From an uncultured Actinomycetes bacterium (GTDB taxonomy: Bacteria; Actinomycetota; Thermoleophilia; Gaiellales; JAICJC01): a stretch of 64,000 nucleotides of DNA. Shown here piece by piece: positions 22,331-38,717 of this stretch. The notes under the pieces were generated by a model. The model was given only the letters and a program-made list of their open reading frames with translations. It searched no databases and was not told the DNA's origin. The stretch spans positions 89,851 through 153,850 of the forward strand of contig CAWHWC010000001.1 in the NCBI GenBank assembly GCA_963832955.1, given 5' to 3'. How positions within the stretch are numbered: position 1 is the first letter of the stretch; each line of letters begins with the position of its first letter. The translations under genes and the position numbers were made by a program.

Positions 22331-22608
22331 ATGCCCGATGGCGCCGCCCAGGCCCGCGCCGCGGGCCTGCTCCTGCTCCTGACTGTGGCGGGCGCCTGTG
22401 GCAGCAGTTGTTGGTGGTCAATCTGCGGGCCGACGCCGAGAGGTTGGGGCGGCCAGGGGCCGACCTCCGCTCCGAGCGGGAAGCTGACTACGCGCGCACC
22501 CGTCGCGAGCTCGATGCGTTCGTCAGGAGGCGCGTCGCGCCGTTTTGGTCGCGTGACCGCTGGCGCCGCCGCGGTCCGCTGTTCGAGATCGAAGACCACG
22601 GCGACTGA
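22331..22608 (+). CDS. Candidate small lipoprotein/secreted protein, apparently frameshifted near 22400
   Basis: ATG 22331 gives MPDGAAQARAAGLLLLLTVAGACGSS. High-GC3 coding signal then continues in the frame of the 66-aa ORF (..LVVNLRADAERLG...FEIEDHGD). Confidence 0.3.
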
Positions 22609-22799
22609 GGACAAGACATCTGCGATCAGGTCGGTCCCACGAGCGTGTTGGTGATCCCGGCCGCGGGCCGACGACCTCTCGACCCGACGAGCCGCGGCTC
22701 GGCCAATGTCCGCTTGAAATCCAGTCGCACGTGTGAGACGATTGCCACAATCTCCCTCTTGGGTGTTTCGGGCATGGGAGGCAAACGAGGGGGCGGATC

Positions 22800-23903
22800 A
22801 TGCCGCGCACTCTCCCACGGAGCGCTTGCCTAACGGTTTGGGTGGCACTGGTCGCAGTACTGGCCGGATTCGGTCCTTTCGGGGCGTCGGCGCAAGCGTC
22901 TGGTGCGGTGACACTCGTGCACTCGTCTCAGTTCATAGACGTGGCGACGGCGGCGGGAGGACGGCTCGCCTGGGTGCAGGAAAGAGGAAACCATTCGGTA
23001 ACGTGTTTCCAGATACGCCGTAAGCTGGTGGGACGGACTGGTTCGACGGTGCTGACGGGCTGGTGCGAGGACCAGCAAACCAACCCGCTCGCGTTGGATA
23101 TCGCAATGGCCGGTCGGCGGGTCACGGCGTCATCCGTTACGTTCTTCGGTGGTGGAGTGGACACATCGTTGACGACGGCGATCAAGCCCACCCATGCCCA
23201 AACATTCACGTATTCCTCTGATTGCGAGTTCACGTTCTGCGGGTCGAGCGGTCAGACCGGCACCCAGCTAGGGCCGGTCGCGGCGAGCGCGCGCACCACC
23301 GTGTTCGGGCTCACAGAGGTGGCTGCCGAGCCCGTCTGCCCCAATGGTTGTGCGATCGTCGTCACCGGAGGACGGGTAGTACAGCTGGTGGACACCGGCG
23401 GCGGTCGCGTCAGCCGTATACGCGTGCCCGGCGCTCCGGCCTCGGCGCTCCTGGCGGTTGCCTCCCACCGGATTGTGGATGTGCCGCTCCTGGCTGATGG
23501 AACGGCATCGTCCGTGATGGAGGTTCGGGATATCGACACCGGCGTCGTCACGTCATCGGTGACGGTCAACGGCCTCATTCGGCGCATCGCTCTGACCCGG
23601 ACTACGATCATCGCCGAGTTCAGAAACGCCCAGCACGTAAACAGAATCGCATGGTATGCCGTGTCTGACGGCCACCAACTGGGACACACCGGCCCGCTCT
23701 CGGACCCGCTTCCGATGGATGCCGACGGAGACCGATTCGTCTTCGGCACCCACAGGATCCGGCTCCTCAACCTTCTCACAGGCGCGTCGCGCCAAGTGTG
23801 GAATCCGAATGGACATGTCGGCGAGTTGTCCCTCGACGGCAGGTTGATTGTCGTCCACCGAGCACCTAGCAAGACCATTGAAGGGCTTCGCCTGCCAGCC
23901 TGA
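22800..23903 (+). CDS. Secreted hypothetical protein
   Basis: Signal peptide ...VALVAVLAGFGPFGASAQA. Beta-rich, with several Cys pairs. Lower GC3 than the flanks. Confidence 0.6.
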   Translation: MPRTLPRSACLTVWVALVAVLAGFGPFGASAQASGAVTLVHSSQFIDVATAAGGRLAWVQERGNHSVTCFQIRRKLVGRTGSTVLTGWCEDQQTNPLALDIAMAGRRVTASSVTFFGGGVDTSLTTAIKPTHAQTFTYSSDCEFTFCGSSGQTGTQLGPVAASARTTVFGLTEVAAEPVCPNGCAIVVTGGRVVQLVDTGGGRVSRIRVPGAPASALLAVASHRIVDVPLLADGTASSVMEVRDIDTGVVTSSVTVNGLIRRIALTRTTIIAEFRNAQHVNRIAWYAVSDGHQLGHTGPLSDPLPMDADGDRFVFGTHRIRLLNLLTGASRQVWNPNGHVGELSLDGRLIVVHRAPSKTIEGLRLPA

Positions 23904-24145
23904 GTTCGGACGACGCGCGAAGGGAGCGGAATCATCGTGAAGGTCAGCGACCCTTGCACAGCCGCATCGAAGCCGTGGTCTGTTGTCGCAGACCAGACGA
24001 GGTGGCCGTCCGGGACGAGCGCCTTGATGAAGCCGCCGTCGACGCCGAACTACGAGTCCACGGTGGTTCGTCGATGACGGTCGCGTCAGCTAGGTAGTGA
24101 TGGCAGGGCGCCGGCCGCGGATGCGGAGGTGCTGGAGGATCGACG

Positions 24146-24742
24146 TCAGAATCCGGGTGTGGCGGCGACGGTCCGTTTGAAGCCGATGCGTTGGATCATC
24201 TTTGCGAGGAAGATGACGAAGCCGAGGGGATAGTGAGGCCCGGGGTCGGTGTGGCCACTCGGGTCGATGCCCGCCAGTCCGACGCGGCGGTGGGTGGTTA
24301 CGCCGGGCAGGCGTGGATCGTGCCGCACACGGATCGGAATGCCGTACCGGCCATGTGCCCACGCGATGATCCGCGCCACCGCGTACAACTGCTTGCGCCG
24401 CTTTCGCCTCCACACCAGATTGCGGAAGGTGGCAAAGCCGATCTGCTCGATCCCGATCGACCCGGTGTTGAGGTTGGTGACATGCCATTGGATCTGGGTC
24501 GGGTCGCCGCCTCGGCCGACGTTTCCGTTCCTGTCCACGACGAAGTGGGCGCCATACTTGGCGAGTGTCCCGTCCGGATTCTTCTGGGTATGCCAGAAGT
24601 TGAAGACGCCACGGATCTCAGCAACGCCGGCCGTGTCATGCGACTCGGTGTCGTGCAAGACGATCCGAACCGGCTTGTGTGTCCCATGCACCCACGGCTT
24701 GGGATCGGTAACCGAGATCGGTGGGAGGAGGACGCGCCTCAC
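24146..24742 (-). CDS. N-acetylmuramoyl-L-alanine amidase (amidase_2/PGRP fold)
   Basis: IVLHDTES...GAHFVVDRNGN...NTGSIGIEQIG...GVTTHRRV...GHTDPGP: zinc ligand and substrate motifs of T7-lysozyme-type amidases. No signal peptide. Confidence 0.75.
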   Translation of the reverse strand: MRRVLLPPISVTDPKPWVHGTHKPVRIVLHDTESHDTAGVAEIRGVFNFWHTQKNPDGTLAKYGAHFVVDRNGNVGRGGDPTQIQWHVTNLNTGSIGIEQIGFATFRNLVWRRKRRKQLYAVARIIAWAHGRYGIPIRVRHDPRLPGVTTHRRVGLAGIDPSGHTDPGPHYPLGFVIFLAKMIQRIGFKRTVAATPGF

Positions 24743-24849
24743 GTCAGCAGCCTCGCGATCTCCGCTGGTGACCTACCTCGATGTCCCCTATCGGCGGCCA
24801 TCGGCCCCTTTTAGGTTTGCCATGTCAGACCGCCTCTGCGCGTGCCCAC

Positions 24850-25716
24850 CTACGGGCATGAGGTGAGGACTTCTCCGCTGGTACAAGTGTCGGTGCCGGC
24901 GCCACCATCGAGAGCGTCTGTGCCCGCTCCGCCGGTGAGCACGTCGTCGCCGGCGAACCCACGAATGGTGTCGTCGCCGCGGCCGCCATCGAGGTGGTCG
25001 TCCGCGGATCCCGCAAAGAGCATGTCGTCGCCGCCACGGCCGCGGATCACAGCCGCGCCTCCTCCCTTGACGATCACGTGGTTCGAAGCGTTTGATCCTG
25101 TCACGGAAATTGGCGAATCCTTGACAAGGTGAACGTTCTCGACGCTGAAGACATGGTCATGTCCCAAGCCCAGCGCGGTTCCTGCCGAAAGATTCACAGT
25201 GAGTGCTGGCCCGAAGAAGCCAGTGAACGTCTCGAGCAGGTCCGGGTCGGCTCCCCCGTGGATCACGTCGTTCCCGAAGTCCAGCGATACGCTGTCTCGT
25301 CCGACACCGGCGAAAAGCACATCATCCCCATGACCGCCGGTGAGAGCGTCGTCGCCGCGTTCGCCGAGAACGATGTCCGCGCCGCCCCTGCCCGCCAGTG
25401 TGTCGTTGCCGGTGCCTCCGAATACCTCATCGTCGCCACGCCCTGCGATGATCCGGTCATTACCGATGCCACCACAGACGAGGTCGTTACCGCCGTTGCC
25501 GAAGATCAAGTCGGATCCCGCCAACCCGACGATGACATCGTCTCCAGCTGTCCCGATCAATAGGTTACTGCGGGGAGTACCAACCATCGTCGCCGCATGG
25601 TCATGGCACATCAGCGTGGCCGCCTGAACCCCTGGCGCTGGTATCAGCACGCCGACGCCAGCGATAAGCAGTCCTACGACGGACAGTCGCCGCCTGATCC
25701 TCAAACGTCGTCGCAT
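24850..25716 (-). CDS. Secreted calcium-binding protein with hemolysin-type (RTX-like GGxGxD) repeats
   Basis: Signal peptide MRRRLRIRRRLSVVGLLIAGVGVLIPAPGVQA. Repeats such as GTAGDDVIVGLAGSDLIFGNGGNDLVCGGIGNDRI. C-terminal ..GTDTCTSGEVLTSCP. Confidence 0.7.
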   Translation of the reverse strand: MRRRLRIRRRLSVVGLLIAGVGVLIPAPGVQAATLMCHDHAATMVGTPRSNLLIGTAGDDVIVGLAGSDLIFGNGGNDLVCGGIGNDRIIAGRGDDEVFGGTGNDTLAGRGGADIVLGERGDDALTGGHGDDVLFAGVGRDSVSLDFGNDVIHGGADPDLLETFTGFFGPALTVNLSAGTALGLGHDHVFSVENVHLVKDSPISVTGSNASNHVIVKGGGAAVIRGRGGDDMLFAGSADDHLDGGRGDDTIRGFAGDDVLTGGAGTDALDGGAGTDTCTSGEVLTSCP

Positions 25717-25855
25717 GGCGTTGCCCCTTTTCGTCGTCCCGCGAGGATTCTCACCAGCCGGAAGGTCGGCCCGTTCAAACGCCGCTGCCACCAACACCGA
25801 TCGAAGCTATCGCGTGCGTCTCGCTCACGCCTCCTGACGTCACCAACCGGCGGTA

Positions 25856-26275
25856 TCACGGACACGACGTGACGACCTCACCTCGGGTGCACGTGTCCGA
25901 GCCAAGGCCTCCGTCGAGCGTGTCGGTGCCGACTCCGCCGTCGAGGAGGTCGTCGCCGAAGAAGCCGGTGATGGTGTCATCACCTCGGCCGCCGCGCAGT
26001 CGATCGTCGAAGTCCCAGCCGGAAAGTGTGTCGTTGCCGCCTCGGCCGCGAATCGCAACAGACCCGATCACATCGAATCGCGGCGTACCCACCAGGACGT
26101 CGGCACCCGGACTCCCCACGATCGTCGCCGGTACATGCCGACACATCACCGTGGCGGCGGACGCCGACCCAACCGGGACGACCGCGATCCCGCCGGCTGA
26201 GAGAAGCAGGGCTGCGACGCGCCCCACCGACCGCCACGTAGACGTCGCTCGCGTTCGCAAGGAGCCCCCACGCAT
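25856..26275 (-). CDS. Secreted calcium-binding RTX-like protein, short paralogue of 24850-25716
   Basis: Signal peptide, then the same N-terminal cap (AATVMCRHVPATIVGSPGADVLVGT) and C-terminal cap (GSDTCTRGEVVTSCP). Confidence 0.65.
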   Translation of the reverse strand: MRGGSLRTRATSTWRSVGRVAALLLSAGGIAVVPVGSASAATVMCRHVPATIVGSPGADVLVGTPRFDVIGSVAIRGRGGNDTLSGWDFDDRLRGGRGDDTITGFFGDDLLDGGVGTDTLDGGLGSDTCTRGEVVTSCP

Positions 26276-26422
26276 CACGCCCCCGATCGTCGAACCGACG
26301 ACTATAAGCCACAATCAGCACAAATTCAAACTCGCCCTCGCGCCCTCGGCGCAGCCTGGGCCAGCCACGATGCCGCGCGCTGGCTGTTGCTTGGGCGACG
26401 ACATCGGCGGATCCGCGTAACT

Positions 26423-26736
26423 TCAGCCGACGAGCCGACATACACGCCAACGGTCTGATAGGCCCTTGAGTTCGTGCTCGCCCGCGTCCTCGAGTACGAG
26501 TCCCAAGCCGCGGTGAGATCCTTCACTGTCGACGAGACGAGGACTTCCGACGGATCCGTGAGAACCGCGATCCTGGCGCCGATATGGACGGCGATTCCCC
26601 CCACGCCAGCTTCCATCAACTCGATCTCACCGGTGTGCACTCCGCCTCGGACTACGAGGCCAATCGATCCGACAGTTTCGGTGATTGCCCCGGCGCAGCG
26701 AACGGCGCGGGCGGGCCCCGACACCGCGACAGTCAA
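26423..26736 (-). pseudogene. Relic of a class III adenylate/guanylate cyclase domain (C-terminal half only, internally frameshifted)
   Basis: ...AVRCAGAITETV...VRGGVHTGEIELMEAGVGGIAVHIGARIAVLTDPSEVLVSSTVKDLTA, then after a frameshift near 26507 GLGLVLEDAGEHELKGLSDRWRV. The N-terminal metal-binding half is absent. Confidence 0.6.
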
Positions 26737-29700
26737 GCTCCAGGCTCGGCGACCCGGCCAACAACGCTGCCATCCAGTGGCCAGCCGGTCGCAGAGAGTA
26801 CGTCCTCGTCCACGCCAAGGCCGCGGAATAGCGACGCTGCCTCCGTCGCGTATGGCTCAGCCTGGCCCTCGTTCCCCAACTGTCGGAGGCAGCGGGCGCG
26901 GCCGGCGAGGGCGTGCGCGAGCTCGAACGGATGGCCGAACGAGCGCCATCTCTGCGCGGCGTCGTCGTAGAGAGCCGCCGACGTCCATGCATCTCCTTCT
27001 GCCTCGGCAAGCATCGCTCGAACGGTCGCTCTGCTGTTCGTCGCGCGCGTCGGTTCGGACGTATCTTCCGCCAACCGGTGCGCGTGCGTCACACCGCCCG
27101 AGGCGATCAACACGCGCGCGGTTTCGGTGATAATGCCGGTTTCGCCGGCGAACCGAAGCGTGCTGCTCTCGACGGCGAGCTTGCCCGCTCGCTGCGCGTT
27201 GCCGTCGATCAGGACTAGTAGGGCGGCCACCGTGAGGGCTGGGGCGACGATTTGCGCGTCGACGATGTCGCGGGCGCGGTCGACTGCTCCCGCCATGGTG
27301 GCACGGGCTGCGGGCGCGTCGCCGCGAAGGGCGAGGATGTACGCCCTCAGCGGGGCGGCCAAGGCTGCGTGCTGGTGGGTGCTGCTACCGGCCCAGGTGA
27401 GCACCACCTCGGCGTCTTGGAGGGCGTCATCCCAGGCTCCTGCGTCGAAAAGGTGCCACACGCTGAACGCTCGTGCCAGCATCTCGTACGTCGAGTTGCG
27501 CGTCCGAGCCGCATGCTGGATTGCCTCCCGGTCGATCGCCGCAGCGGCGGCAGGCCCGTCCCATTCGAGTCGCTGGCCGGCGAGGTGCATGAGCCCCATC
27601 GTGATGTAGGGCGGGTCGTGCTCTCTGAACATCGAGAGCGACCGCTCGAGATCATCCATGCCTTGATGGCGGTCACCGGACTCAGAGCGGATCAGGCCAC
27701 GGGTGTTGATGGCGAGAGCTGCCGCTAGCGGATCGTCGACTTCTTCAGCGATGGCCAGCTGTCGGTCGACGAGCTCCAGGCTGCGGGCTAGATCTCCGCG
27801 TAGCATGAGGATGAAGGTGGCGTTGCCGATCACCCGCGCGACCTTCGACGTGGGGGGCTCACGTTCGAACCGCTCGAGCGCTAGGTCTGCGACGCGTTTG
27901 CATTCCCGGCCGTCGCCGCGGAAATAGGCCGCCTCGATCTGCTGGAACATCGTGTCGGCGAGCGCCTCAGTATCTCCAAGTGATACCGCGGCAGTGCGCG
28001 CCCATTCGAGAACATGGGAGGCCTCCGCGAGGGCACCCGCCTGGACGAGACACGTGCCGCGGACACACAAGAGCTGCGGCATCTGGTCGCCCTTGCCGTC
28101 GGCGAGCTCAATCGCCTGGTCGACGAGGTGGGTGGCTCGCTCCAGGTCGAGGCCCATAGCGTGCTCGGCGGCGATCCCGCCGAAGCGAACGGCGGCCCAG
28201 CGGAGGGATGCATCCTCGTCCTGTCCACTCGAGCGTCGAAGCGCGACCGCCTCGGTGTAGTGGTAGGCGAGCAACTCGGCGCGGTCTGCCACCCGGTCGC
28301 CCGCGAGCTGCTGGATCCAATCCGCCGCCCGGCGATGCTTGTCGGCCCGCTCCACGCGTGGGATCTGGCCGTAGGCCACGTCGTGGACGAGGTCGTGCCA
28401 AAACGAATACTCCTCGTCACCCGGCACGGTGGAGAGGCGCGATCGCCGGATCAGCTCCTTGCGGGCCAGTTCGTGCAGCTCGGAGCGAACCGCCGCTGGT
28501 TCGCGCTCCCCCATTTCCGCGAGTGCGCCGGCCCAAAACACCTTGCCGACCACGGCCGCGTCGTACAACAGCGCTTTGCGCTCCGCGTCCAGCGTGTCGA
28601 TCCGGGCTGTGATCAGCGCCAGCACGGTGTCAGGCATCTCGACCTCGGTCAGCGCAGGGCTGGTGCGGTCCCCGAGCAGACGTATGTACTCCTCGGCATA
28701 CAGCGGGTTGCCGCCGGACCGTTCAACCAATCGCCGCTCGACATCCGCCGAGATGGGAAAGTCACCCAACAGCGAGCGGGCCAGGCGCTCCGTGTCGTCG
28801 GTTGCCAGTGCCCTGAGCGCGAGTGTGGTCGCGTTCGCCAGCCCGCCCGCCCAGTCGGGGTGGGCCTCCAACAGCTCCGGCCGGGCCGTGCATAGAATCA
28901 GCATCGGAACGCTGGTCGACCACTCCGCCAGATACTGAATGAAGGCGAGCAGCGCCGGATCAGCCCAGTGCAGATCCTCGAAGATCAAGGCCAGGGGGTC
29001 GCGGGCGGCGACTTCGTCGAAGAATCGCTGCCACGCCGCGAACACCTCCTCGCGCTCGCCGCCCTCGCCCGGAAGCCCGACCAGTGGCGCCAGCCGAGCC
29101 CGAAGCCACGCCGCGTCAGCCATCCCGGCCACGGCCTCATCCAAAAGAGCCCGCGCCTGCTCCTCGCTCTCGGTCTCACTGATGCCGGCGTGTGCCTTCA
29201 CGATCTCGGCCAGCGGCCACAAGCCGATCCCGTCGCCATACGCGATGCAGCGGCCCCGCCGTATCGCCACCGAGACCGACCGCGCACCAAGCCACACCTC
29301 GAGCTCCGCTATCAACCGCGACTTTCCGATGCCGGGCTCGCCCACGACCGTCACGAGCTGCAGACCCGGCCCTTCGATCGCCCGCTCGGACACCTCCTGC
29401 AGCAGGCGCACCTCGCGGAGCCGGCCCACGAAGGGCGCCGACCGTCCTGGGCTGCGAACCGCCGCCCCGCCGATGGCCGCTACCGCCTGCCACACCTCGA
29501 CCGACGTCGGTTTCCCCTTCAACACCACCGGAGCCAGCGATTCGTACTCGATCACGTCGCTGGTCGCACGGACGGTCGCTTCGCCGACGACCACGCCACC
29601 CACCGGCGCCACCGCCTGAAGACGCGATGCCGTATTCATCACGTCTCCCACCACCATCCCCTCGCCGAACTCCGATCCAGGCGACACCCGCACCAACGCC

Positions 29701-30227
29701 GCACCCGTATTCACCGCCACACGCACCTCAACCCCGATCGAATCCACGATCGCAAGCCCGGAGCGCACCGCCCGCTCCGCATCATCCTCATGCACCCGCG
29801 GCGCGCCCCACACCCCCACAATCGCGTCCCCGATGAACTTCTCCACCACACCACCGAAGCGCTCGATCTCCGCTCGAACCGCCGCGTGATACGCGCTCAG
29901 CCTCCGGCTCACATCCTCCGGATCCGCCGCATGCGCCGACGCCGTGAACCCGACCAAGTCGCAGAACAACACCGACACAACCTTCCGCTCCTCGCGCATA
30001 CGTGGTGGCGCAACGTCCAGCCCGGCGCCGCATGACCCACAGAAGCGGAAGCCATCAGGATTCTCCTGCCCGCACCTCGCGCAGACCGCCACCACACGGA
30101 CTCTACGCCTCGCGGACCGATCGGCGGCACCCGATTCAGCGCGACCAATACGCTCGAAGCTCGTGCGCCTATGAGATCCCCCTCGTCCGCCGGTTGAGAT
30201 CGTGGTGTCATGATGCTGATTCCCCAC
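26733..30227 (-). CDS. Zinc-ribbon / class III nucleotidyl cyclase / P-loop NTPase (AAA_16, STAND-like) / TPR multidomain protein
   Basis: CARCGQENPDGFRFCGSCG. Cyclase motifs VLFCDLVGFT, KFIGDAIVGVWG, NTASRL. Walker A GEPGIGKSRL. Long helical-repeat C-terminus. The start may be GTG near 30101. Confidence 0.85.
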   Translation of the reverse strand: MGNQHHDTTISTGGRGGSHRRTSFERIGRAESGAADRSARRRVRVVAVCARCGQENPDGFRFCGSCGAGLDVAPPRMREERKVVSVLFCDLVGFTASAHAADPEDVSRRLSAYHAAVRAEIERFGGVVEKFIGDAIVGVWGAPRVHEDDAERAVRSGLAIVDSIGVEVRVAVNTGAALVRVSPGSEFGEGMVVGDVMNTASRLQAVAPVGGVVVGEATVRATSDVIEYESLAPVVLKGKPTSVEVWQAVAAIGGAAVRSPGRSAPFVGRLREVRLLQEVSERAIEGPGLQLVTVVGEPGIGKSRLIAELEVWLGARSVSVAIRRGRCIAYGDGIGLWPLAEIVKAHAGISETESEEQARALLDEAVAGMADAAWLRARLAPLVGLPGEGGEREEVFAAWQRFFDEVAARDPLALIFEDLHWADPALLAFIQYLAEWSTSVPMLILCTARPELLEAHPDWAGGLANATTLALRALATDDTERLARSLLGDFPISADVERRLVERSGGNPLYAEEYIRLLGDRTSPALTEVEMPDTVLALITARIDTLDAERKALLYDAAVVGKVFWAGALAEMGEREPAAVRSELHELARKELIRRSRLSTVPGDEEYSFWHDLVHDVAYGQIPRVERADKHRRAADWIQQLAGDRVADRAELLAYHYTEAVALRRSSGQDEDASLRWAAVRFGGIAAEHAMGLDLERATHLVDQAIELADGKGDQMPQLLCVRGTCLVQAGALAEASHVLEWARTAAVSLGDTEALADTMFQQIEAAYFRGDGRECKRVADLALERFEREPPTSKVARVIGNATFILMLRGDLARSLELVDRQLAIAEEVDDPLAAALAINTRGLIRSESGDRHQGMDDLERSLSMFREHDPPYITMGLMHLAGQRLEWDGPAAAAAIDREAIQHAARTRNSTYEMLARAFSVWHLFDAGAWDDALQDAEVVLTWAGSSTHQHAALAAPLRAYILALRGDAPAARATMAGAVDRARDIVDAQIVAPALTVAALLVLIDGNAQRAGKLAVESSTLRFAGETGIITETARVLIASGGVTHAHRLAEDTSEPTRATNSRATVRAMLAEAEGDAWTSAALYDDAAQRWRSFGHPFELAHALAGRARCLRQLGNEGQAEPYATEAASLFRGLGVDEDVLSATGWPLDGSVVGRVAEPGA

Positions 30228-30307
30228 GGATCATCGCGCCTCGTCCCCCGGCGGCTCGTGAAACGAGTCGGCGCGTTCCACACGCAGAGCGCTTGTCGTC
30301 GGTGGTG

Positions 30308-33298
30308 ATGCGGTCTAGTGTCGGCAACGTGCTGATCTGCACGAGTTGTGGGCACGAGAACGGCGACGGCGCGAAGTTCTGCGAGGAATGCGGCCGCTCG
30401 TTCGCGGGTGCGTTCGCCCAGTCGCAGGAGCAGCGCAAGACGGTGACGGTCCTGTTCTGCGATGTGACCGGGTCGACGGAGCTGGGTGAGTCGATGGATC
30501 CGGAGCGGCTGCGTGCGCTGCTCGCGCAGTACTTCGAGCAGATGCGGGTGATCGTGGAGCGGCACGGCGGCAGCGTGGAGAAGTTCATCGGCGATGCTGT
30601 GATGGCGGTGTTCGGGGTGCCGGTGCTGCACGAGGATGACGCGCTGCGGGCGGTGCGGGCGGCTGTGGAGATGCGAGACGCGCTACCCGAGCTTGGGCTG
30701 CAGGGGCGGCTCGGCGTCATGACCGGGGAGGTGGTGACGGGGACGGAGGAGCGGCTTGCAACCGGGGATGCGGTCAATGTGGCCGCTCGGTTGGAGCAGG
30801 CGGCACGGCCGGGGGAGGTGCTCGTGGGTGCGGCAACGGTGGAGCTCGTCCACGATTCGGCCGTGGTCGAGCAGGCGGGCGCATTGGAGTTGAAGGGCAA
30901 GGCGAGGCCGGTGGACGCCTACCGGTTGGTGGAGGTGGGTCGTGCGCCGCCGCGGGCGCAGGACACGGCCTTCGTCGGTCGTGTCGGCGAGCTCGAGGCG
31001 CTGCGGGATGCGTGGGATCGGGTGCGGGCAGAGCAGAGGTGTGAGCTTGTTACGGTGGTCGGTGATGCCGGCGTCGGAAAGTCTCGGCTCGTCGCAGAGT
31101 TTCTACGCTCGATCGACGCGACCGCCGTTCGCGGCCGCTGCTTGCCGTACGGGGACGGCATCACCTACTGGCCGGTGGTCGAAGTGTTGAAGCAGCTCGA
31201 TCTGGTCCCGGACGACCCGGCGGTGGCCGCGCCGATCGATGCGCTGCTCAGGAGAACAACCGTACCGACGTCTGCCGACGAGGTGGCCTGGGCGTTTCGC
31301 AAGACGCTCGAGCAGGCGTCCGCTGAGCGACCATTGGTGGTTGTCTTCGACGACATCCAGTGGGGGGAGCAGACGTTCATCGACCTAGTCGAGCACGTCG
31401 CGCTGCTCTCGTCCGGTGCGTCGATCCTGCTCGTCTGCATGGCCCGGCCCGAGTTGGCCGAGCGTCGTACAGGCTGGCCCGTTGTGCTCCGGCTCGACGG
31501 GTTGGGTGATGCGGACGTCGATGCCCTCCTCCCCGCTGGGATGTCCGACGAGTTGCGCGGGCGGATTGCGCGATCGGCCGGCGGCAATCCGCTTTTCGTC
31601 GAGGAGATGCTGGCCGTGGCGGGGGACGCAGACGGCGACGTGGTCGTCCCGCCCACCCTGCAAGCGTTGCTCGGTGCGCGGCTGGATCAGCTGGACGCTT
31701 CTGAGCGGAGCGTGCTGGAGCGGGCCGCTGTCGAGGGCGAGGTCTTCCACCGCGGCGCCGTTCAAGCGCTCACCCCAGGCGATACCACCGTGACTCCCCG
31801 CCTGGCTGCCCTGGTGCGCCGAAAGTTGATCGGGCCCGAACGGCCGGTGGTCGCCGGCGAGGACGCGTTCCGCTTCCGCCACCTGCTCATCCGCGACGCC
31901 GCCTACGACTCCCTGCCCAAGGCAGCGCGGGCTGACCTCCATCTCCGCTTCGCCGCATGGATGAGTCGGCAAGGCGCGGATCTGGTCGAGCTGGACGAGA
32001 TCGTCGGCTACCACCTCGAGCAGGCGCTCCACTACCAGGCCGAGCTGGGGCTGGCCCGCGACGAAGCCGTGACCGCCGCCGCCGTCCGACACCTGAGCGC
32101 GGCCGGCGGGCGGGCGAACGATCGTGGGGACCCCGACGCGGCTGCAAGCCTCCTGGCCCGAGCGGTCGCAATGCTCCCGCCCGGCCAGATCGATCTCGCC
32201 GCCGAAACCAACCTCATCGACGCGCTCCTCTGGGGCGGCGCGACGGACGCGGCGCTCAGAAGCGCGGAGTCGCTAGCTTCGCGGGCGCGCGCGACTGGTG
32301 CGAAGGTCGGCGAGCTGTGTGGCCAGATCATGGCGGGCCACGTCCGGCTGTTCGTCGCGCCCGGGGGAATCGCCGACCCATTGGAGGCGCTCATCCGGCG
32401 GGCGCTGCCCGTCTTCCAGGCGGCGGACGAACGCGTCGCCCTCCACGTCGCGTACTTTACGCTCGCCTGGGTGAAGCAGCTCCGGGGGCGGATCGGCGAG
32501 GGGCTCGAGGCGGTGGAGCGAGCGGTCGCGTATCGCCCCGAGCGGGCCGGCGATCTCCGGCCGTGGCGCGGCGGCGCACGCTTGGATGGCCCCATGCCCG
32601 TCGCGGACCTGCTCGCCTGGCTGGACGAGCCCGAGCAGCATCAGGTGCACGACCCCTGGCTCGACTCGTACCGGGCACACGCGCTGGCGATGCTCGGCCG
32701 CGTCGACGAGGCCCGTGCCATCATCGCCGAGACGCGGGCCGAGGTGGCAGAGCGCGGGAGCCGACTCGAGGTGGCGGTCTTCACCGGCCAGTACTCGGCC
32801 GAGATCGAACTCCTGGCGGGCGATCCCGTTGCGGCCGCAGACTTCGCCACCGAGGGGTGCCGCCAGCTGGAGAGCCTGGGTGAGCGCTACTTCCAAACCC
32901 CGATGCTCGCTCGCCTGGCCCGCATCCTGTGCGTCCTCGACCGCCTCGACGATGCCGACGAGCTGGTGGAGCGCGTCAGGCGGATGGGCGCGAGCAACGA
33001 CGGCGAGGCAGGGTGCCGGTGGAGACAGGCCAAGGCCGTCCTGCTGGCGCGCCGCGGCCATCACGCTGAGGCCGAGGAGCACGTCCGCGCCGCGGTTGCG
33101 ATCGCCGAGACGACCGACCTCCTCAATAACCGCGCCGACGCATACGCCGACCTCGCCGAGGTGCTCGCCCTCGGCGGGAAAGCCGACGAGGCGACGGAGG
33201 CGCTCGAGCAAGCCCTCGAGCGCTATGAGCGCAAGGAGAACCTCGTCATGGCGAGGCGGACCCGCGACCGGCTGGCGGCTGTAGCGGCCCACACATAG
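30308..33298 (+). CDS. Zinc-ribbon / class III nucleotidyl cyclase / P-loop NTPase (AAA_16, STAND-like) / TPR multidomain protein (paralogue, divergent)
   Basis: ATG 30308. CTSCGHENGDGAKFCEECG. VLFCDVTGST, KFIGDAVMAVFG, NVAARL. GDAGVGKSRL. TPR-like C-terminus. Confidence 0.85.
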   Translation: MRSSVGNVLICTSCGHENGDGAKFCEECGRSFAGAFAQSQEQRKTVTVLFCDVTGSTELGESMDPERLRALLAQYFEQMRVIVERHGGSVEKFIGDAVMAVFGVPVLHEDDALRAVRAAVEMRDALPELGLQGRLGVMTGEVVTGTEERLATGDAVNVAARLEQAARPGEVLVGAATVELVHDSAVVEQAGALELKGKARPVDAYRLVEVGRAPPRAQDTAFVGRVGELEALRDAWDRVRAEQRCELVTVVGDAGVGKSRLVAEFLRSIDATAVRGRCLPYGDGITYWPVVEVLKQLDLVPDDPAVAAPIDALLRRTTVPTSADEVAWAFRKTLEQASAERPLVVVFDDIQWGEQTFIDLVEHVALLSSGASILLVCMARPELAERRTGWPVVLRLDGLGDADVDALLPAGMSDELRGRIARSAGGNPLFVEEMLAVAGDADGDVVVPPTLQALLGARLDQLDASERSVLERAAVEGEVFHRGAVQALTPGDTTVTPRLAALVRRKLIGPERPVVAGEDAFRFRHLLIRDAAYDSLPKAARADLHLRFAAWMSRQGADLVELDEIVGYHLEQALHYQAELGLARDEAVTAAAVRHLSAAGGRANDRGDPDAAASLLARAVAMLPPGQIDLAAETNLIDALLWGGATDAALRSAESLASRARATGAKVGELCGQIMAGHVRLFVAPGGIADPLEALIRRALPVFQAADERVALHVAYFTLAWVKQLRGRIGEGLEAVERAVAYRPERAGDLRPWRGGARLDGPMPVADLLAWLDEPEQHQVHDPWLDSYRAHALAMLGRVDEARAIIAETRAEVAERGSRLEVAVFTGQYSAEIELLAGDPVAAADFATEGCRQLESLGERYFQTPMLARLARILCVLDRLDDADELVERVRRMGASNDGEAGCRWRQAKAVLLARRGHHAEAEEHVRAAVAIAETTDLLNNRADAYADLAEVLALGGKADEATEALEQALERYERKENLVMARRTRDRLAAVAAHT

Positions 33299-33820
33299 CG
33301 GTTGCACAAGCCGATGGTGGCCCGGCCGACACTTACGACGGTCAGCGGCCAGCGTTGGCGTACGGCGGATCCGGACGCAGGCGCAACTGCGGGGGCGGCG
33401 TCGGCAGCGGCCACGTGGTAACACGCGGCTGGGACGGGCTCTGTGCAGGCGACAAGGTCATGGGCAGAGTCTTGATCGCACGCCTAGCCGTCGCTGTACG
33501 GCTGGCAGGCGTCAGGTGGGCGCCTGTCCCGACGATCGTGGTGCGGCCAGCACCCGCGCCACCGACGGCAAGAGGGGTTGCCTGGTGCCCAGCCTTCGCA
33601 CGCCTCAACCTAGGCTTGGCGAGGATCGGATCGCGTCGGGGAGATCCCCATCCGTTTACAGGCCAAGGCGGCGGGCTCTCTGTCGACTACTTGGCTGACT
33701 CCGCGGGGAGCACGGCGCTTCGTCCTTAGACGGCTCGCAGAACGGGGCGGAACTGGGCCCGCTGAACGACCAGCTTCGACTAGCAGCCCATGACCACACG
33801 GGCGCGGCGTTCCGAAGCCT

Positions 33821-33925
33821 CTACATGGAGGGGGCGTCAGCGGCTCGAACGTGTCGGCGCTCCATGACCGCGTCGATCGCCCACTGCTCGCACCGCCGCT
33901 ACTCGCCGCCCGGTTCGCGGTACGC
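33821..33925 (-). repeat. Copy A of a decayed Cys-rich small-ORF module (ends ..RRCEQWAIDAVMERRHVRAADAPSM*), with in-frame TAG at 33899-33901
   Basis: Core tccatgaccgcgtcgatcgcccactgctcgcaccg (33861-33895) recurs at 34981 and 36604. The TAG aligns with a TCG codon in copy C. Confidence 0.6.
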
Positions 33926-34031
33926 ATGCCCTGTCCCTCCCATACACTCGCTGCCGATCATGGAGCTGCTCGTTGCCTTGAAGGCCGATGTTTGGGAAGC
34001 GACCATCAGGGAATGGCGGCCTAGGATCGCT

Positions 34032-34802
34032 ATGGAGCCCTCAGAACACGAGGACGAGCGATATTCAGCGGTCAGGCAGTACTCGCTCGCTGAGATCATT
34101 GGGGTGTGGGCGGCAGCGGCAGTCCCGATGGGTGTTCTCGCGTGGGTCGTCGCTCCCTGGCTTAGGGATCAACTGGGGGGCCGCGACCCGTTCATCGAGG
34201 CGCTCTTGATCTGCTTCAACATGGGGCTCGTCTACCAGCTCGTATTGGTGCTGATTCTGGTTTGGCGGGAGCAGGGAAGCCTTGAATGGTTGCGTGTGCG
34301 TGACGCCCTGTGGCTGCGGGCGCCGAAGGATCCGAAAACGCGACGCGTGGGCGGGAAGGTCTGGTGGTGGGTGCTTCCCTTCCTCCTCCTGTCTGCTGCC
34401 ATAGAAGCGCTCCCCATCTATCCCACGGGGCCGTCGCCCAGGGATCTCCCTAATCTGCTGGGCAGCGACCGCGCCGAGCACTTCTTCAAGGGCGCTTGGG
34501 GCTGGTTCGCGCTGCTTGTGTCGGTGGCCCTCCTGGCCCCGGTGGTTGAGGAACTGCTGTTCCGGGGGCTACTGCTGCCGCGAATGCGAGCCGCAGTCGG
34601 CAGGCGCGATTGGGCGGTAAACGGCGCCCTTTTCGGTGTCTACCACGTGCACCAGCCGTGGAGCATTCCATCCAGCGTGCTTGACGGCATGTTCGGTCAG
34701 GCCTATCCCACGAAGCGGTTCCAGAGCATATGGATAGCGATCATCACGCACACGGCTCCGAGCTTCGTGATCATCGGTGTCGTCCTCAGCCTCGTGCTTT
34801 GA
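34032..34802 (+). CDS. CPBP family (CAAX/Abi) intramembrane glutamic endopeptidase
   Basis: APVVEELLFRGLLLP motif 1, FGVYHV motif 2, ITHTAPSF motif 3, multiple TM helices. ATG 34032 preferred; the upstream part of the ORF overlaps repeat copy A. Confidence 0.8.
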   Translation: MEPSEHEDERYSAVRQYSLAEIIGVWAAAAVPMGVLAWVVAPWLRDQLGGRDPFIEALLICFNMGLVYQLVLVLILVWREQGSLEWLRVRDALWLRAPKDPKTRRVGGKVWWWVLPFLLLSAAIEALPIYPTGPSPRDLPNLLGSDRAEHFFKGAWGWFALLVSVALLAPVVEELLFRGLLLPRMRAAVGRRDWAVNGALFGVYHVHQPWSIPSSVLDGMFGQAYPTKRFQSIWIAIITHTAPSFVIIGVVLSLVL

Positions 34803-34804
34803 TC

Positions 34805-34927
34805 ATGGCCCGCTTGCGCCTCACACCGTGGCGGGTGGTCGGCCTGATCGTCGTACTGCTCCTGCTCTTCGTACTCCTGTTCCTGGTCGGATGGAGCGGC
34901 GGGTCGGGAGGGTCGAACTACCCCTAA
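34805..34927 (+). CDS. 40-aa hydrophobic micro-protein coupled to the CPBP protease gene
   Basis: ATG 3 nt after the CPBP stop. MARLRLTPWRVVGLIVVLLLLFVLLFLVGWSGGSGGSNYP. High GC3 in this frame. Confidence 0.45.
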   Translation: MARLRLTPWRVVGLIVVLLLLFVLLFLVGWSGGSGGSNYP

Positions 34928-34949
34928 AGGCCAGGCCTGGCGAGGCGGT

Positions 34950-35102
34950 CTATCTCCGGGGGGCTCGAGCCCGACGACGTTCCATCACGGCGTCGATCGC
35001 CCAGTGTTCGCCGCGGCCACCTCGCTCGTCGGCGCGTCGCGGCAGAGCCATCGGCCGGATTCGGAGCAGGCAACGGTCTCGAGGCCGGCCGAGCAGCCGG
35101 CC
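34950..35102 (-). repeat. Copy B of the decayed Cys-rich small-ORF module (..GCSAGLETVACSESGRW..//..EHWAIDAVMERRRARAPRR*), frameshifted with an insertion of about 40 nt
   Basis: Core 34981-35013 plus a second block 35054-35102 that matches 36641-36686. No start codon in frame. Confidence 0.6.
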
Positions 35103-35204
35103 GGGGAGCGGTCGGTTGCCAGGAGGCGGACGGCGGGGCCGCCCCGAGCCTACTGGCCATTCCGACGGCTTCCGGCGCGTCCGTGGCGCTCGTACGATGG
35201 TGAT

Positions 35205-35435
35205 ATGCCTCCCCGGCGACGGATTATCGACATCCAGGAGTCTTACTGTCATGGCTGCGGGTCGCCGTTGACCTGGGTGGCCGTATCGGATGTGCTGGTT
35301 GGCTCAACCAGCGGGGTTGCCTCGGATCGGGAGGCATCACCTTCACCAGCCCGCTTCTGGGAGACCGCATGCGGCAAGTGCGGACAGACCTACATGACCA
35401 GCTCCGGGCCGGCAGCTCGTCTTCGCTGGCCGTGA
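35205..35435 (+). CDS. Small zinc-ribbon protein, hypothetical
   Basis: MPPRRRIIDIQESYCHGCG...x35...ACGKCGQTY two CxxC pairs. Moderate GC3. Confidence 0.4.
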   Translation: MPPRRRIIDIQESYCHGCGSPLTWVAVSDVLVGSTSGVASDREASPSPARFWETACGKCGQTYMTSSGPAARLRWP

Positions 35436-35494
35436 GCGGCTCGTCCTAAAGAAGGCCACAGCACCTCCAACGACTAGGCGGCGGATGTTCACCA

Positions 35495-35519
35495 CCTTCG
35501 GTCGTAGACAGACCGAAGG
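35495..35519. terminator. Perfect 9-bp stem / 7-nt loop hairpin between convergent genes
   Basis: ccttcggtc gtagaca gaccgaagg. Confidence 0.35.
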
Positions 35520-35570
35520 CGGGTCGGTAGGCTCGGTTTGGGGACTGGTCACTCCAGAGACCAAGGGAAC

Positions 35571-35667
35571 CCGCGTCCCGCCCATCGTGCGAATGATGCG
35601 GCGCTAGGCTGCCGCACACCGAGGGCGGGACGCGGTCTCCCGCCTGACGTGCGGAGCTCGTCAGGCG
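35571..35667. terminator. Nested/alternative stem-loops at the 3' end of the 35661-36107 gene
   Basis: 13-bp perfect inverted repeat ccgcgtcccgccc(35571-83)/gggcgggacgcgg(35623-35) enclosing a 6-bp hairpin. A second 9-bp inverted repeat cgcctgacg(35641-49)/cgtcaggcg(35659-67) overlaps the stop codon. Confidence 0.3.
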
Positions 35668-36107
35668 GACGCCTGCTCCAGCCGGTCGCGAACCTCGGTC
35701 AGCGCCGCCTGCTCGGCGGGGCTCACCTGCTGCCCCTCCTCTTTGTGGGCGGCCGCGACGTTCGACGCGAGAGTCACGACGAACTCGCGATAGTCATCGA
35801 GCTCCTCGGGCGTGCCCTTCCGGCCGACGACGGCGGCCGCTTCGGCGATCCGCTCGAGGCCGGTGTCGTGCAGCTCGCGGGTCGAGTGGTAGCGGTGCCG
35901 GTCGAACTCAGGCTTGGCCGAGACGATCTCGTCGAGCAGCTCGCTCTGTCCATGCTCCTTGCGGGCGTCCGTGTAGGCGCGCGCGAGCGCCAGGGTCTCG
36001 CGGAACGTCCCACCGCTGTCGGCGGTGAGCACGATCATCCCGGCGGTGACGGGGCCCTCGGCCACCAGATCCCATTCAGCCTCATCGAAGTCGCTCTTCA
36101 CGCTCAT
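35661..36107 (-). CDS. Conserved hypothetical protein (actinobacterial family, all-helical)
   Basis: MSVKSDFDEAEWDLVAEGPVTAGMIVLTADSGGTFRETLALARAYTDARKEHGQSELLDEIVSAKPEFDRHRY... resembles a widespread uncharacterised actinobacterial family. Confidence 0.6.
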   Translation of the reverse strand: MSVKSDFDEAEWDLVAEGPVTAGMIVLTADSGGTFRETLALARAYTDARKEHGQSELLDEIVSAKPEFDRHRYHSTRELHDTGLERIAEAAAVVGRKGTPEELDDYREFVVTLASNVAAAHKEEGQQVSPAEQAALTEVRDRLEQASA

Positions 36108-36578
36108 TCAGTGTCTCCTCCACCGCCACTCGATCATGGCCTCCCCCGGATTGATCTGGCGGCTGGCGGTCGAACCCCGACCAGGATCGGCGAGCCTAGG
36201 GAAGAATCAGGCCGAACCGCGTCTCCCGACCGCGGCTGGCTCCTCAACCCCGACGACCGGCATCCTAGTCATCCTCGGGCGAAGCGCTGTACAACCGAAT
36301 ACCCGAGCGGTCGCCGTGCCGTCGCGGCGTCCGGTTCGCGCGGTGTGGCCTTGGCCCGATCTTGCCGTGGGAGCCGTGGGATCTCGGCCATGTCGACCAC
36401 GGCCGCCGCTCCTCGATCCTGGTTCGGGCGGAATCGCCGGGGAGTTGGCCGGGCACCGCACCGGTAGAGGTGCGAATGTCCTTTCGCTAGTCTGGCGGTG
36501 CCCGGCGCGGGGTCCCCCGAGACCCGCTCTGGGCTAGCCGCGTCTCGCCCCTACTCCTGGTCGCGGGCGAGGCGCGAC

Positions 36579-36786
36579 CTACCCCGATCGAGCTCTTCGG
36601 CGCTCCATCACCGCGTCGATCGCCCAATGCTCGCACCGGCCCGACTCGGAGCAGGCGGCCGTCTCCAGGCCGGTGGAGCAGCGACCGGGTAGCGGCTGGT
36701 GGGGGCCGGCCGCAGAGCGAGCATCGGGTGCGATCGCTGCTCGTCGGCGGCAGGGTGGTCAGTTCGAGCGAAGGGTGCGACATCAT
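36579..36786 (-). pseudogene. Copy C, the most complete Cys-rich small ORF (about 69 aa), apparently frameshifted
   Basis: MMSHPSLELTTLPPTSSDRTRCSLCGRPPPAATR.. shifts frame to ..GRCSTGLETAACSESGRCEHWAIDAVMERRRARSG*. GC3 supports the switch. An imperfect 12-bp hairpin at 36540-36578 follows the stop. Confidence 0.35.
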
Positions 36787-36890
36787 CTTGACGTTGCTCG
36801 CAGCCTCATCTGGCCGTGCGGCGCGCGGGCGATATCGGTGTGATGTCGATGGGGTGGCGCCGCTTGGCGCACACCCCATCGATGAGGTGC

Positions 36891-38514
36891 TCAGTGGTGA
36901 TCGGTGAACGGTTGCGGCACGCCGATGCGGCCGTCCGACCAGGTGTAGTACGTCGTCGTGCCGACGCTTGTGTTGTCGGTGTAGTCGCCGAAGTTGGGGA
37001 TGATTAGGCTGGAGGTGTTCGTCCAATCTGTCGCGCCGGTGGTGATTCGGAAGTCGGCCTTGTTGGAGCTGATGCTGGGTCGACAATCGCCGAAGTAGTC
37101 GGTCGTGGCCGAGTCGGGGCCGAATCGGCGCCGGTCATACCATGACGTGCAGATGTGCCCGTTTGAGCGAACCGATAGGGCCGGCAGGAAGTGAAGCGCG
37201 AAGTCGGAGTCGTCGTTTACCTGCGCGATGGCGCTTGGGTTGCCGAGCGAGGCGGAGTACGACCGCAACCAGATGTCGCCGAGTGGATGCAGGCTGGCGT
37301 CGTTCCATGCCACGACTGCGCGGCCGCTGACTCGGTTCCAGGCGATGCGAGGGAAGTCGTTCCCAGTGCCGCGGTTGTAGCCCGCGATCACCGTGGCGTC
37401 GAGAGACCTGACACCTCCGACCGGCGTCGCGTTGGTCTGGCCCTTCGTGATCACGACCGGGTTGTTCTTCCCACCGTTGAGCGGCGCGTTCGCGCCGGCC
37501 GGCACGACAGCGATGTGCTCGTAGATGTGCGGGTCTCCCCCGAAGAACACGTTGGTGTCGACGTTGCGCTCCCACGCCACGTAGGTATCACCACCAGGTG
37601 CCACTGCCACGTAGGCGCCTTCGTTCTCCACGCTCGGCTCCTCCGGCCACACCAGCGTGGTGTGAAAGTCACTGCTGTTGAGCAGGGTCGCGTTGGCGGG
37701 TACGTGGGCGCGGGCAATGTCGATCTCGCCCTGGCCGGTGTGGTTGCCCGAGATGAAGAAGCGCGTGAACGACATCGCCAGGGTTCGGGTTGACTGATCC
37801 CACGACAAGAAGTCCTTATCCAGGAAGGCGATGTTCGGCGGCGGATTCCTCTGGAAGAGCTTGCACGCGTTCCCGGCCTTGCTCGTCACCGACCGGCTTC
37901 CCCATCGTGACGCCCGTCGCGGTAGGCGTAAGCACCTCCACCGCCACGGTCAGCTGAGCGGGCTTGCCGTCCGTGCAGGCATCGAGAGACGGAAGGAACA
38001 GCGACCCGACGACGAAGTGCGCTCCCCCGTCGATTGAGACGACCGTGGGATCTCCACTCCACTGCTGATCCGGATTCGGGTTTCGCAGGCCGACCAAGTC
38101 TGTGTAGGACGCGCCACCGTCCGTCGAGTAGCCCACGCCAGTCAGCGACGCCTGGAGGCGGTTCCCCTGCAGAAACGCGAACCCAGTCGCGTCGTTCCAT
38201 GCCGCCATCACCTGGCCGGACGTCGTCGCATCGATGGCCGTCTCACTCTGCCCCGCCAGCAAATCCTCCACCGTCGAGGCGGCATCCACGTTCGAGCCAA
38301 ACGACAGCGAACTGGCCGTGGGCGCGACGCGCCTCGCAGCGCCGGATCCGACCTTCGGCGGGTTGAGCCACCCGCGCGCGCCCTGTGACACCCAATGGGC
38401 ATGCAGATGCTGCGCAACCACCTGCTTTAGCGAAACCTGCGCGCCAGCCGACCCCGACCCGCCCCACACCACGACCATCGCGCCCATCACGGCCACCAAC
38501 ACGATCCGACGCAT
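36891..38514 (-). CDS. Secreted BNR/Asp-box (sialidase-like) beta-propeller protein; apparent frameshift near 37890
   Basis: Signal peptide MRRIVLVAVMGAMVVVWGGSGSAGA. Asp-box YSTDGGASY. The 286-aa and 332-aa ORFs join at ..GVTMGKPV/VTSKAGNACK... Confidence 0.6.
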
Positions 38515-38717
38515 CACGCCGCCCCCTTCACCCGACCCTCGCCCGCGTCTAGAAGCGACCCGGAGTCTGCTACTCCACACCACGCATGTCAACCCCGAGA
38601 TGCGGCGCGCTCGGCCCCTGGCGGCACACGGACAGAGAGGGCGGGGCGACCGATCGTCGCTAATCGCGGAGACCACACCGAGACCACACGGCTACGACAT
38701 TCCAGTGCGTCTACGAC

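Follow-up and report, generated by a model that had tools for sequence, protein, structure and literature searches.

Signal transduction ATPases that have numerous domains (STAND) such as PH0952 of Pyrococcus horikoshii (PDB entry 6MFV) and MalT of Escherichia coli consist of a nucleotide-binding oligomerisation module (NOD), made up of a nucleotide-binding domain (NBD), a helical domain (HD) and a winged-helix domain (WHD), followed by a sensor of helical repeats (tetratricopeptide repeats, TPR, or SUPR). The resting proteins are closed, ADP-bound monomers held in autoinhibition by the sensor; an inducer drives nucleotide exchange and multimerisation, and the terminal effector becomes active (PMC6468293). 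Rv0386, Rv1358 and Rv2488c of Mycobacterium tuberculosis carry an N-terminal class III nucleotidyl cyclase, then an AAA_16/MalT-type NTPase and then TPR-like repeats, and the Rv0386 type ends in a LuxR helix-turn-helix (HTH), which gives it two outputs. Rv0386 was reported to be an active class IIIc cyclase with a non-canonical Gln/Asn substrate-defining pair, and its ATPase module was described as unstudied (10.1101/2024.03.06.583649). The present analysis concerns two adjacent, divergently transcribed genes, A and B, whose products show the same order of cyclase, NTPase and repeats and carry no HTH. They are located in a window of 64,000 nucleotides (the whole stretch of DNA that was analysed: contig CAWHWC010000001.1 of assembly GCA_963832955.1, positions 89,851 to 153,850) from an uncultured actinomycete of the Gaiellales. 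All coordinates are those of the window, and the features of the two genes are collated below.

Gene A, 26733..30098, minus strand: 1121 amino acids (aa); zinc ribbon, class III cyclase, STAND NTPase and TPR sensor
A zinc ribbon CxxC-x10-CxxC, aa 6-27, 30018..30083, minus strand: Pfam Zn_Ribbon_1, E 2e-6
A class III cyclase, aa 35-208, 29475..29996, minus strand: Pfam Guanylate_cyc, E 5e-12; PDB matches Cya2, CyaB and RhGC
A STAND NOD (P-loop NBD, helical domain, winged helix), aa 222-580, 28359..29435, minus strand: AAA_16, E 7e-19; secondary structure of the AlphaFold2 (AF2) model; Foldseek 6MFV, E 4e-14
A TPR-like all-helical sensor, aa 581-1103, 26790..28358, minus strand: AF2 model; Pfam TPR_12 at aa 1028-1092
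Spacer of the divergent pair A/B, 30099..30307: 209 bp between the likely starts
Gene B, 30308..33298, plus strand: 996 aa, architecture as gene A; ATG start at 30308
B zinc ribbon, aa 11-31, 30338..30400, plus strand: Pfam Zn_Ribbon_1, E 9e-7
B class III cyclase, aa 41-210, 30428..30937, plus strand: Pfam Guanylate_cyc, E 6e-21; PDB CyaB, E 3e-24
B STAND NOD, aa 222-537, 30971..31918, plus strand: Pfam AAA_16, E 2e-23; AF2 model
B TPR-like sensor, aa 538-995, 31919..33292, plus strand: Pfam TPR_12, TPR_19 and TPR-S; AF2 model

At its longest, the open reading frame (ORF) of gene A extends over 26733-30227 (1164 aa); comparison with the N-termini of homologs (e.g. P0007, 'VVPVCTRCGQ...') gave the GTG at 30098 as the likely start. 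For gene B an alternative GTG start, used by some homologs, lies 7 codons in, at 30329. A preliminary description of the window had given a divergent pair of about 1120-1164 and 996 aa, and these sizes were retained; its spacer of 80-200 bp was replaced by the 209 bp listed above. Both cyclase domains scored above the Pfam gathering cut-off of 21.9 bits for Guanylate_cyc (PF00211), with 46.2 bits for A and 75.4 bits for B. The cyclase motifs are FCDLVGFT and NTASR in A, FCDVTGST and NVAAR in B, and KFIGDA in both. The GxxGxGKS and hhhhD[DE] motifs characteristic of a STAND NOD are present in both proteins, as Walker A sequences GEPGIGKSRL (A) and GDAGVGKSRL (B) and as the Walker B-like FEDLHWAD (A) and the Walker B VVFDDIQW (B); DLHW (Walker B-like) and GGNPL are invariant throughout the A clade. 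Every zinc-ribbon, cyclase and Walker A motif quoted in the preliminary description was found in the sequence, and its four-part architecture was confirmed by Pfam matches to Zn_Ribbon_1, Guanylate_cyc, AAA_16 and TPR in both proteins. The TPR region, put there at about 600 aa, measures about 460-520 aa. The zinc ribbon is optional within the family, being missing or degenerate in the closest relatives of A (P0001-P0004).

The AF2 model of A (115 sequences; pLDDT 90.1, pTM 0.79) comprises the zinc ribbon (1-30), the cyclase (35-208), a disordered linker, the NOD (222-580) and an uninterrupted solenoid up to residue 1103. The model of B (pLDDT 80.5) shares this layout, with TPR helices (939-995) at its end; its winged-helix part (aa 440-532) was modelled with low confidence. 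Among PDB structures, A was matched best by the STAND-TPR protein PH0952 (6MFV, E 4e-14, 732 columns, Foldseek), and the cyclase domain of A superposed on those of CyaB, Cya2, RhGC and Rv1900c (TM 0.7-0.9) and also of Rv1625c (Foldseek). When the PDB was searched with profiles, cyclase and TPR matches prevailed and STAND structures did not surface; these were found by Foldseek. No match to GerE or any other HTH was obtained with Pfam at E<=0.1 in either protein, and since both models end in TPR-like helices, no room is left for an HTH; the earlier statement that an HTH is absent has thus held up against both profile and structure checks. Both proteins combine a C-terminal repeat sensor (solenoid 581-1103 in A, 538-995 in B) with a terminal, here N-terminal, cyclase. 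In STAND proteins the terminal domain that is neither NOD nor sensor is the effector (PMC6468293), and by this rule the cyclase is the output domain of A and B. It occupies the end at which a STAND effector is expected, and the earlier description of the pair as having no output domain is not supported.

In class III cyclases the base-specifying residue is Asp or Thr in adenylyl cyclases and Cys or Gly in guanylyl cyclases; the canonical pairs are Lys with Asp/Thr for adenine and Glu with Cys/Gly for guanine. The residues of A and B were assigned from an alignment of both proteins with 202 relatives (204 sequences) and with solved cyclases:

Metal-binding Asp 1: A D47, B D52
Metal-binding Asp 2: A D91, B D96
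Substrate Lys: A K87, B K92
Transition-state Asn: A N155, B N157
Transition-state Arg: A R159, B R161
Lys of the KGK motif (gamma-phosphate Lys): A K196, B K198
Base-specifying position, 7 residues before the transition-state Asn: A M148, B L150

With the exception of the base-specifying one, the residues in this list each occur in 199 or more of the 204 sequences; the Walker A Lys, too, is essentially invariant among them. At the base-specifying position Leu, Ile, Met, Val or Phe was found throughout the family (26 of the 204 sequences are gapped there). A and B keep the Lys of the canonical pair and have Met or Leu in its second position. That all catalytic signatures are intact, as had been stated, is therefore correct for five of the six canonical residues and incorrect for the base-specifying position (Met in A, Leu in B). 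Because this position is hydrophobic family-wide, nucleotide specificity is not readable from the sequence. Assignment of the product from the specificity residues of Pycsar cyclases was also considered and was dropped, the described positions not mapping onto the divergent one. Compared by description with Rv0386, which has the Gln/Asn pair, A and B have a zinc ribbon and a substrate Lys together with Met or Leu. To judge from the conserved residues, the cyclases of A and B look to be under selection for catalysis.

The active sites of class III cyclases form only at a dimer interface. Our preferred reading, held with a probability of roughly 60%, is that A and B are ligand-gated cyclic nucleoside monophosphate (cNMP) synthases that are activated by oligomerisation and act in ordinary signalling, each polypeptide being a complete sensor-switch-output device. 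The C-terminal TPR-like solenoid would serve as sensor, the NBD-HD-WHD module as ADP/ATP switch and the N-terminal class III cyclase as effector. The resting protein would be a closed, ADP-bound monomer, which would make little product, lacking the dimer on which class III active sites depend. Binding of a ligand to the sensor would release the autoinhibition, ATP would replace ADP, and the NODs would oligomerise; the cyclase domains would thereby be paired into active dimers (induced proximity) and a 3',5'-cNMP would be made. The default guess for this product is cAMP, its base being uncertain because of the hydrophobic base-specifying position. The signal would be read by receptors encoded elsewhere in the genome, and the two genes would have arrived on a 16.4-kb island, described below. 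In PH0952 and MalT the effector binds DNA and the output is transcription, whereas the effector of A and B is an enzyme with a predicted diffusible second messenger as output. The preliminary description had likewise proposed a ligand-triggered second-messenger generator with its receiver encoded elsewhere, which is a reasonable reading.

Several points weigh against this assignment. Direct results of the analysis are the architecture and fold, the retained catalytic and Walker residues, the location on an island, the absence of conserved partners and the size of the family; ligand, product and oligomerisation of A and B are all inferred, as are the ligand gating, the activation by oligomerisation and the physiological rather than immune role. 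The hydrophobic base-specifying residue departs from both canonical adenylyl and canonical guanylyl cyclases, and cyclase activity or specificity could be unusual. Both genes are located on an acquired island, and the sensors of the A clade are swapped between relatives, a pattern that is also known from immune receptors. Neither a cNMP receptor nor a CRP-like match was found in the window, and the literature searched contained no experimental study of any HTH-less cyclase-STAND-TPR protein.

Relatives were collected from a set of 5.8 billion proteins, with 8000 candidates scored per query and the top 120 per query listed. Both searches were saturated, since 7997 of the 8000 candidates for A and all 8000 for B reached E<=1e-10. 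The matches listed are mostly full-length with the same domains, and those with names are nearly all called 'class 3 adenylate cyclase/tetratricopeptide (TPR) repeat protein', 'adenylate/guanylate cyclase domain-containing protein' or 'AAA family ATPase'. When the cyclase and NOD core of B was used as query against 1.84 billion representatives at 50% identity, at least 14,694 proteins were retrieved at E<=1e-30, and nearly all of the top 150 matches cover the whole core in one stretch. The family spans Actinomycetota, Chloroflexota and Proteobacteria and was matched in 288 plasmid records, mostly of rhizobial megaplasmids. An extra SARP domain stands at the N-terminus of a few relatives (P0013, P0034), and others carry about 260-280 extra N-terminal residues of no recognised kind. 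A and B are two more members of this already-annotated, very large family, and the rarity implied by the preliminary description does not apply: proteins with this HTH-less cyclase-STAND-TPR layout occur in very large numbers and receive their annotations as a matter of routine. The HTH-less form is no departure from the mycobacterial Rv0386 type and is very common in its own right. The closest relatives are 76-79% identical to A and 76-80% identical to B; with best identities of 78% (A) and 80% (B) in the protein search, and from genome scans, no close ortholog is present in the nearest relatives among the matches listed.

The NCBIfam model TIGR03903 ('TOMM system kinase/cyclase fusion protein'; TOMM, thiazole/oxazole-modified microcin) aligns in its core with A (model positions 282-891, E 2e-63) and with B (262-584). 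The scores of 214.5 and 169.9 bits are below its cut-off of 705.75; unlike the proteins of that model, A and B have no N-terminal Ser/Thr kinase (the match begins after the kinase) and no ribosomally synthesised and post-translationally modified peptide (RiPP, here TOMM) cluster nearby. A family member on a Streptomyces sp. NBC_00184 plasmid (NZ_CP108138.1, 299.7-307.5 kb; L249) lies inside a RiPP-like 'aroma-sacti' cluster with genes for a radical SAM protein, an iron redox enzyme, a small aroma-sacti protein, an S8 peptidase and a GAF protein. By association, this cluster and the TOMM kinase/cyclase model give a hint that some sensors of the family may read peptides. A 1058-aa protein encoded on pSymA of Sinorhizobium meliloti 1021 (NC_003037.1, about 249.6-252.8 kb; L248:2926-6102) is 37% identical to B over B residues 39-994. 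Like B it has the whole sensor, a C-terminal helix and no HTH; unlike B it has no zinc ribbon and is located on a rhizobial megaplasmid.

The BLAST alignment of A with B covers the ~640 N-terminal residues at 35% identity, and the profiles of their subfamilies align over 978 columns with 28% identity. On the strength of these two values, A and B are judged from their sequences to be full-length, ancient paralogs of different subfamilies and not the result of a recent duplication; to call the pair 'duplicated', as had been done, was misleading. In the B clade, 119 relatives (62-80% identity) match over the whole protein and have a conserved sensor, and this full-length conservation fits a stable ligand. 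The A clade is mosaic. P0004 is 84-86% identical to A in cyclase and NBD and 35% in the TPR sensor, whereas P0023 and P0025 are 71-73% identical in the NBD and 42-43% in the cyclase; these domain-wise jumps point to recombination between family members at domain borders. Within the family, variation is greatest in the TPR-like sensor, which is swapped in P0004; the cyclase is the most conserved, slowest-evolving domain. Family members thus behave as movable, sometimes mosaic, single-gene modules. The A relative that is closest on a long metagenome contig (P0005, 79%; L083, ENA contig_6417, 292 kb, positions 8997-16027) is split by a frameshift and stands in tandem with a second broken family member, with DDE, rve and IS110 transposase genes around it. 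This locus indicates that copies of the family decay and occupy mobile-element-rich DNA elsewhere too.

The two genes lie on a strain-specific island that interrupts a transporter gene:

Strain-specific island, 22384..38780: 16.4 kb; absent in relatives, with junctions read and a shift in GC content
EamA/DMT transporter 5' remnant, 22331..22383, plus strand: first 53 nucleotides (nt), aligned with the uninterrupted gene of L170, L174 and L178
EamA/DMT transporter 3' remnant, 38781..39002, plus strand: last ~220 nt, from alignment to the intact gene

The island is absent from all 12 syntenic Gaiellales-like genomes compared, which align with the window from about 10.5 to 22.38 kb and from 38.78 to 49 kb; nucleotide identity in these flanks is 83-94% for most of them and 67% for the lowest. 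Its GC fraction (0.672 for 22,384-38,765) is lower than in the flanks (0.719 and 0.728). The pair had been assigned to lower-GC accessory DNA, and this was borne out on both counts; it is not core and syntenic in relatives. In the three relatives named above the EamA/DMT transporter gene is uninterrupted; the island stands where its central ~650 bp would be. In the relative L168 (around position 10,000) nearly the entire EamA/DMT gene was independently deleted at the same spot; the site, between an arginase gene and a DivIVA-like gene, looks like a rearrangement hot spot. A prophage or integrative element as the origin of the island was considered and rejected: neither an integrase or transposase gene nor a neighbouring tRNA gene or direct repeats at the flanks were found.

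Of the alternatives, one is doubtful: A and B could be immune sensors of the type of the nucleotide-binding leucine-rich repeat (NLR) receptors, similar to Avs proteins with a cyclase as effector, in which the TPR region would bind an invader protein and the cNMP would arm a toxic or growth-arresting effector encoded elsewhere, in the style of Pycsar or Pucsar. Avs proteins have the same tripartite layout of N-terminal effector, STAND core and TPR-like sensor, the latter binding a single target; in Avs7 the effector is a Cap4 nuclease (PMC13581612), whereas in A and B it is a cyclase. A 2026 preprint predicts that a clade in which cNMP cyclases are joined to NACHT and AP-ATPase STANDs is immune (10.64898/2026.08.12.744502). 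The strain-specific island and the swapping of modules among close relatives of A are also compatible with immunity, as are the many paralogs per genome among the matches listed, some copies of which are decayed or transposase-flanked. Both cyclase domains match PADLOC models of PycC (E 6e-12 and 7e-14). However, these were the only PADLOC matches of A and B, and they reflect the generic similarity that any class III cyclase gives; neither Avs nor any other STAND defence model was matched. No further island gene matched PADLOC, PHROGs matched only an endolysin-like amidase, and the context is not that of a defence island. The NOD is of the AAA_16/MalT-PH0952 kind typical of regulators, and not NACHT or AP-ATPase, which argues weakly against membership in 'immune clade 1' of the preprint (10.64898/2026.08.12.744502). 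The slow evolution of the cyclase and the conservation of the B sensor from Actinomycetota to Sinorhizobium likewise speak for ordinary signalling rather than immunity. A part in defence, which the preliminary description had also mentioned, is possible but lacks support.

The neighbourhoods of relatives point the same way. Pycsar PycC and Pucsar PucC share with A and B the class III cyclase fold and a second messenger that is read by a separate receiver, but they are short cyclases encoded beside a gene for an effector with a cyclic nucleotide-binding domain (CNBD) and TIR domain or with transmembrane (TM) segments (10.64898/2026.08.12.744502). A and B are fused to STAND-TPR, and no cNMP-binding (CNBD-TIR or TM) effector gene was found among the ORFs scanned (~18-41.6 kb). 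When the neighbouring ORFs of 87 family loci were clustered, no CNBD, TIR, TM effector or other partner family recurred beside the family members; only generic clusters were obtained (ABC ATPases, luciferase-like oxidoreductases and short-chain dehydrogenases/reductases), and the closest relatives are surrounded by genes for metabolism, transport and regulators. A wider form of the immune interpretation is that HTH-less cyclase-STAND-TPR proteins, and especially A with its swappable sensor, serve as pattern-recognition receptors whose diffusible, possibly non-canonical cNMP would arm effectors encoded elsewhere. We consider this somewhat less probable again. If true, these proteins would be 'Avs with a second-messenger output', and the immune repertoire would gain one of the largest uncharacterised STAND families of soil Actinomycetota.

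Unlikely, too, is the idea that A and B are one unit, co-regulated from the spacer and forming mixed oligomers or a heterodimeric cyclase that integrates two ligands. Class III cyclases can act as heterodimers, as the mammalian C1/C2 enzymes do; in the window only 209 bp separate the two back-to-back starts, the island carries both genes in intact form, and the two clades are homologous over their full length. Against a heterodimer, each protein has the full catalytic set, without complementary asymmetry. The closest relatives of A and B occur in five mutually unrelated contexts, none of them with the other type alongside. Two or more family genes were found in 22 of 167 family loci, as 21 tandem, 2 convergent and 3 divergent pairs, and as the three divergent pairs are all more than 3.6 kb apart, a short-spacer divergent pair was seen only in this window. 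The spacer (30099-30307) was scanned for sigma-70-like promoter and terminator consensus sequences and none was found, and an Rfam scan of the island including the spacer gave no match. With no recurring partner, unpaired relatives and a divergent arrangement confined to the island, each gene is an autonomous unit. The divergent arrangement is a local accident and not a conserved system, and the coupled pair of the preliminary description has to be replaced by two members of separate subfamilies whose closest relatives are solitary.

A similarly low chance is given to weak or dead cyclase domains that act as nucleotide-binding or dimerisation modules, the proteins being scaffolds or regulators that work through the TPR region. 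This would agree with the replacement of the base-specifying Asp/Thr by Met (A) or Leu (B), and inactive cNMP cyclase domains have been documented in other multidomain systems (PMC7159879). In the S. meliloti pSymA homolog, unlike in B, the substrate Lys is replaced by Arg (DRYVGD) and the transition-state Asn by Arg (AVRVAKR), and to go by these motifs that homolog may be catalytically dead. The retention of six catalytic or phosphate-binding residues in nearly all family members, as given above, speaks instead for selection on catalysis, and Rv0386 is reported to be active with its non-canonical Gln/Asn pair (10.1101/2024.03.06.583649). The last alternative, that A and B are regulators of the LAL (large ATP-binding regulators of the LuxR family) or Rv0386 type whose LuxR HTH was lost or is hidden by truncation or miscalled ends, draws on the domain order that their N-terminal three-quarters share with Rv0386, Rv1358 and Rv2488c and is effectively refuted by the lack of a GerE match, by the TPR helices at the ends of both models, by C-termini whose conservation in dozens of full-length relatives, themselves without HTH, extends up to the final residues, and by an unrelated pseudogene immediately after the stop codon of gene A.

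Besides A, B and a cyclase remnant, the island carries genes for a secreted protein without assigned function, an amidase, two RTX-repeat proteins and a CAAX-type protease, together with unassigned ORFs:

Cyclase pseudogene remnant, 26423..26718, minus strand: only the C-terminal half of the cyclase domain; directly downstream of A
Endolysin-like N-acetylmuramoyl-L-alanine amidase, 24146-24742, minus strand: sole PHROGs match on the island
RTX calcium-binding repeat proteins, two, 24850-25797 and 25856-26314, minus strand: on the island
Two ORFs that overlap, 332 and 286 aa, 36891-37889 and 37816-38676, minus strand: upstream ORF with a signal-peptide-like N-terminus

The remnant is frameshifted near 26,505 and matches B residues 114-180 (tblastn); its translation reads '...GVHTGEIE...GIAVHIGARI...' and, in another frame, 'EDAGEHELKGLSDRWRVCRLVG*'. 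A degraded third cyclase had been noted beside the pair, correctly so. The two overlapping ORFs (36891-37889 and 37816-38676) gave no Pfam, PADLOC or PHROGs match and look like one secreted protein split by a frameshift. A core of about 50-60 nt (TCCATSACSGCGTCGATCGCCCANTG plus flanks) occurs in three copies of the same orientation at 33845-33905, 34965-35097 and 36588-36682, the first of which overlaps the 5' end of the CAAX-protease ORF. These repeats were found only inside the island, where zero would be expected by chance, and had no Rfam match; they may be regulatory and dispersed, or may mark the ends of small genes that are paralogs of one another. A tblastx comparison between island and family loci gave only short, uninterpretable high-GC matches. 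In the remainder of the window, RarA and arginase are 85% and 96% identical, respectively, to proteins of soil metagenome-assembled genomes; such core genes assign the window to an uncultured Gaiellales-like lineage (Thermoleophilia). A second variable spot (41,632-42,054, ~0.4 kb) adjoins a tRNA-Phe gene (42057-42129); the relatives L169, L173 and L180 have about 2.3-3.2 kb there.

The locus in itself is ordinary, its family being already named by annotation pipelines. What gives it weight is the family: HTH-less cyclase-STAND-TPR proteins form a very large group that is still without an experimental study in the literature searched. The question of the cyclase product is directly testable, the catalytic residues being kept and the base-reading residue being hydrophobic. 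For the control of an enzyme by a STAND module, B, with its conserved sensor, many orthologs and a homolog in Sinorhizobium, is a reasonable entry point.

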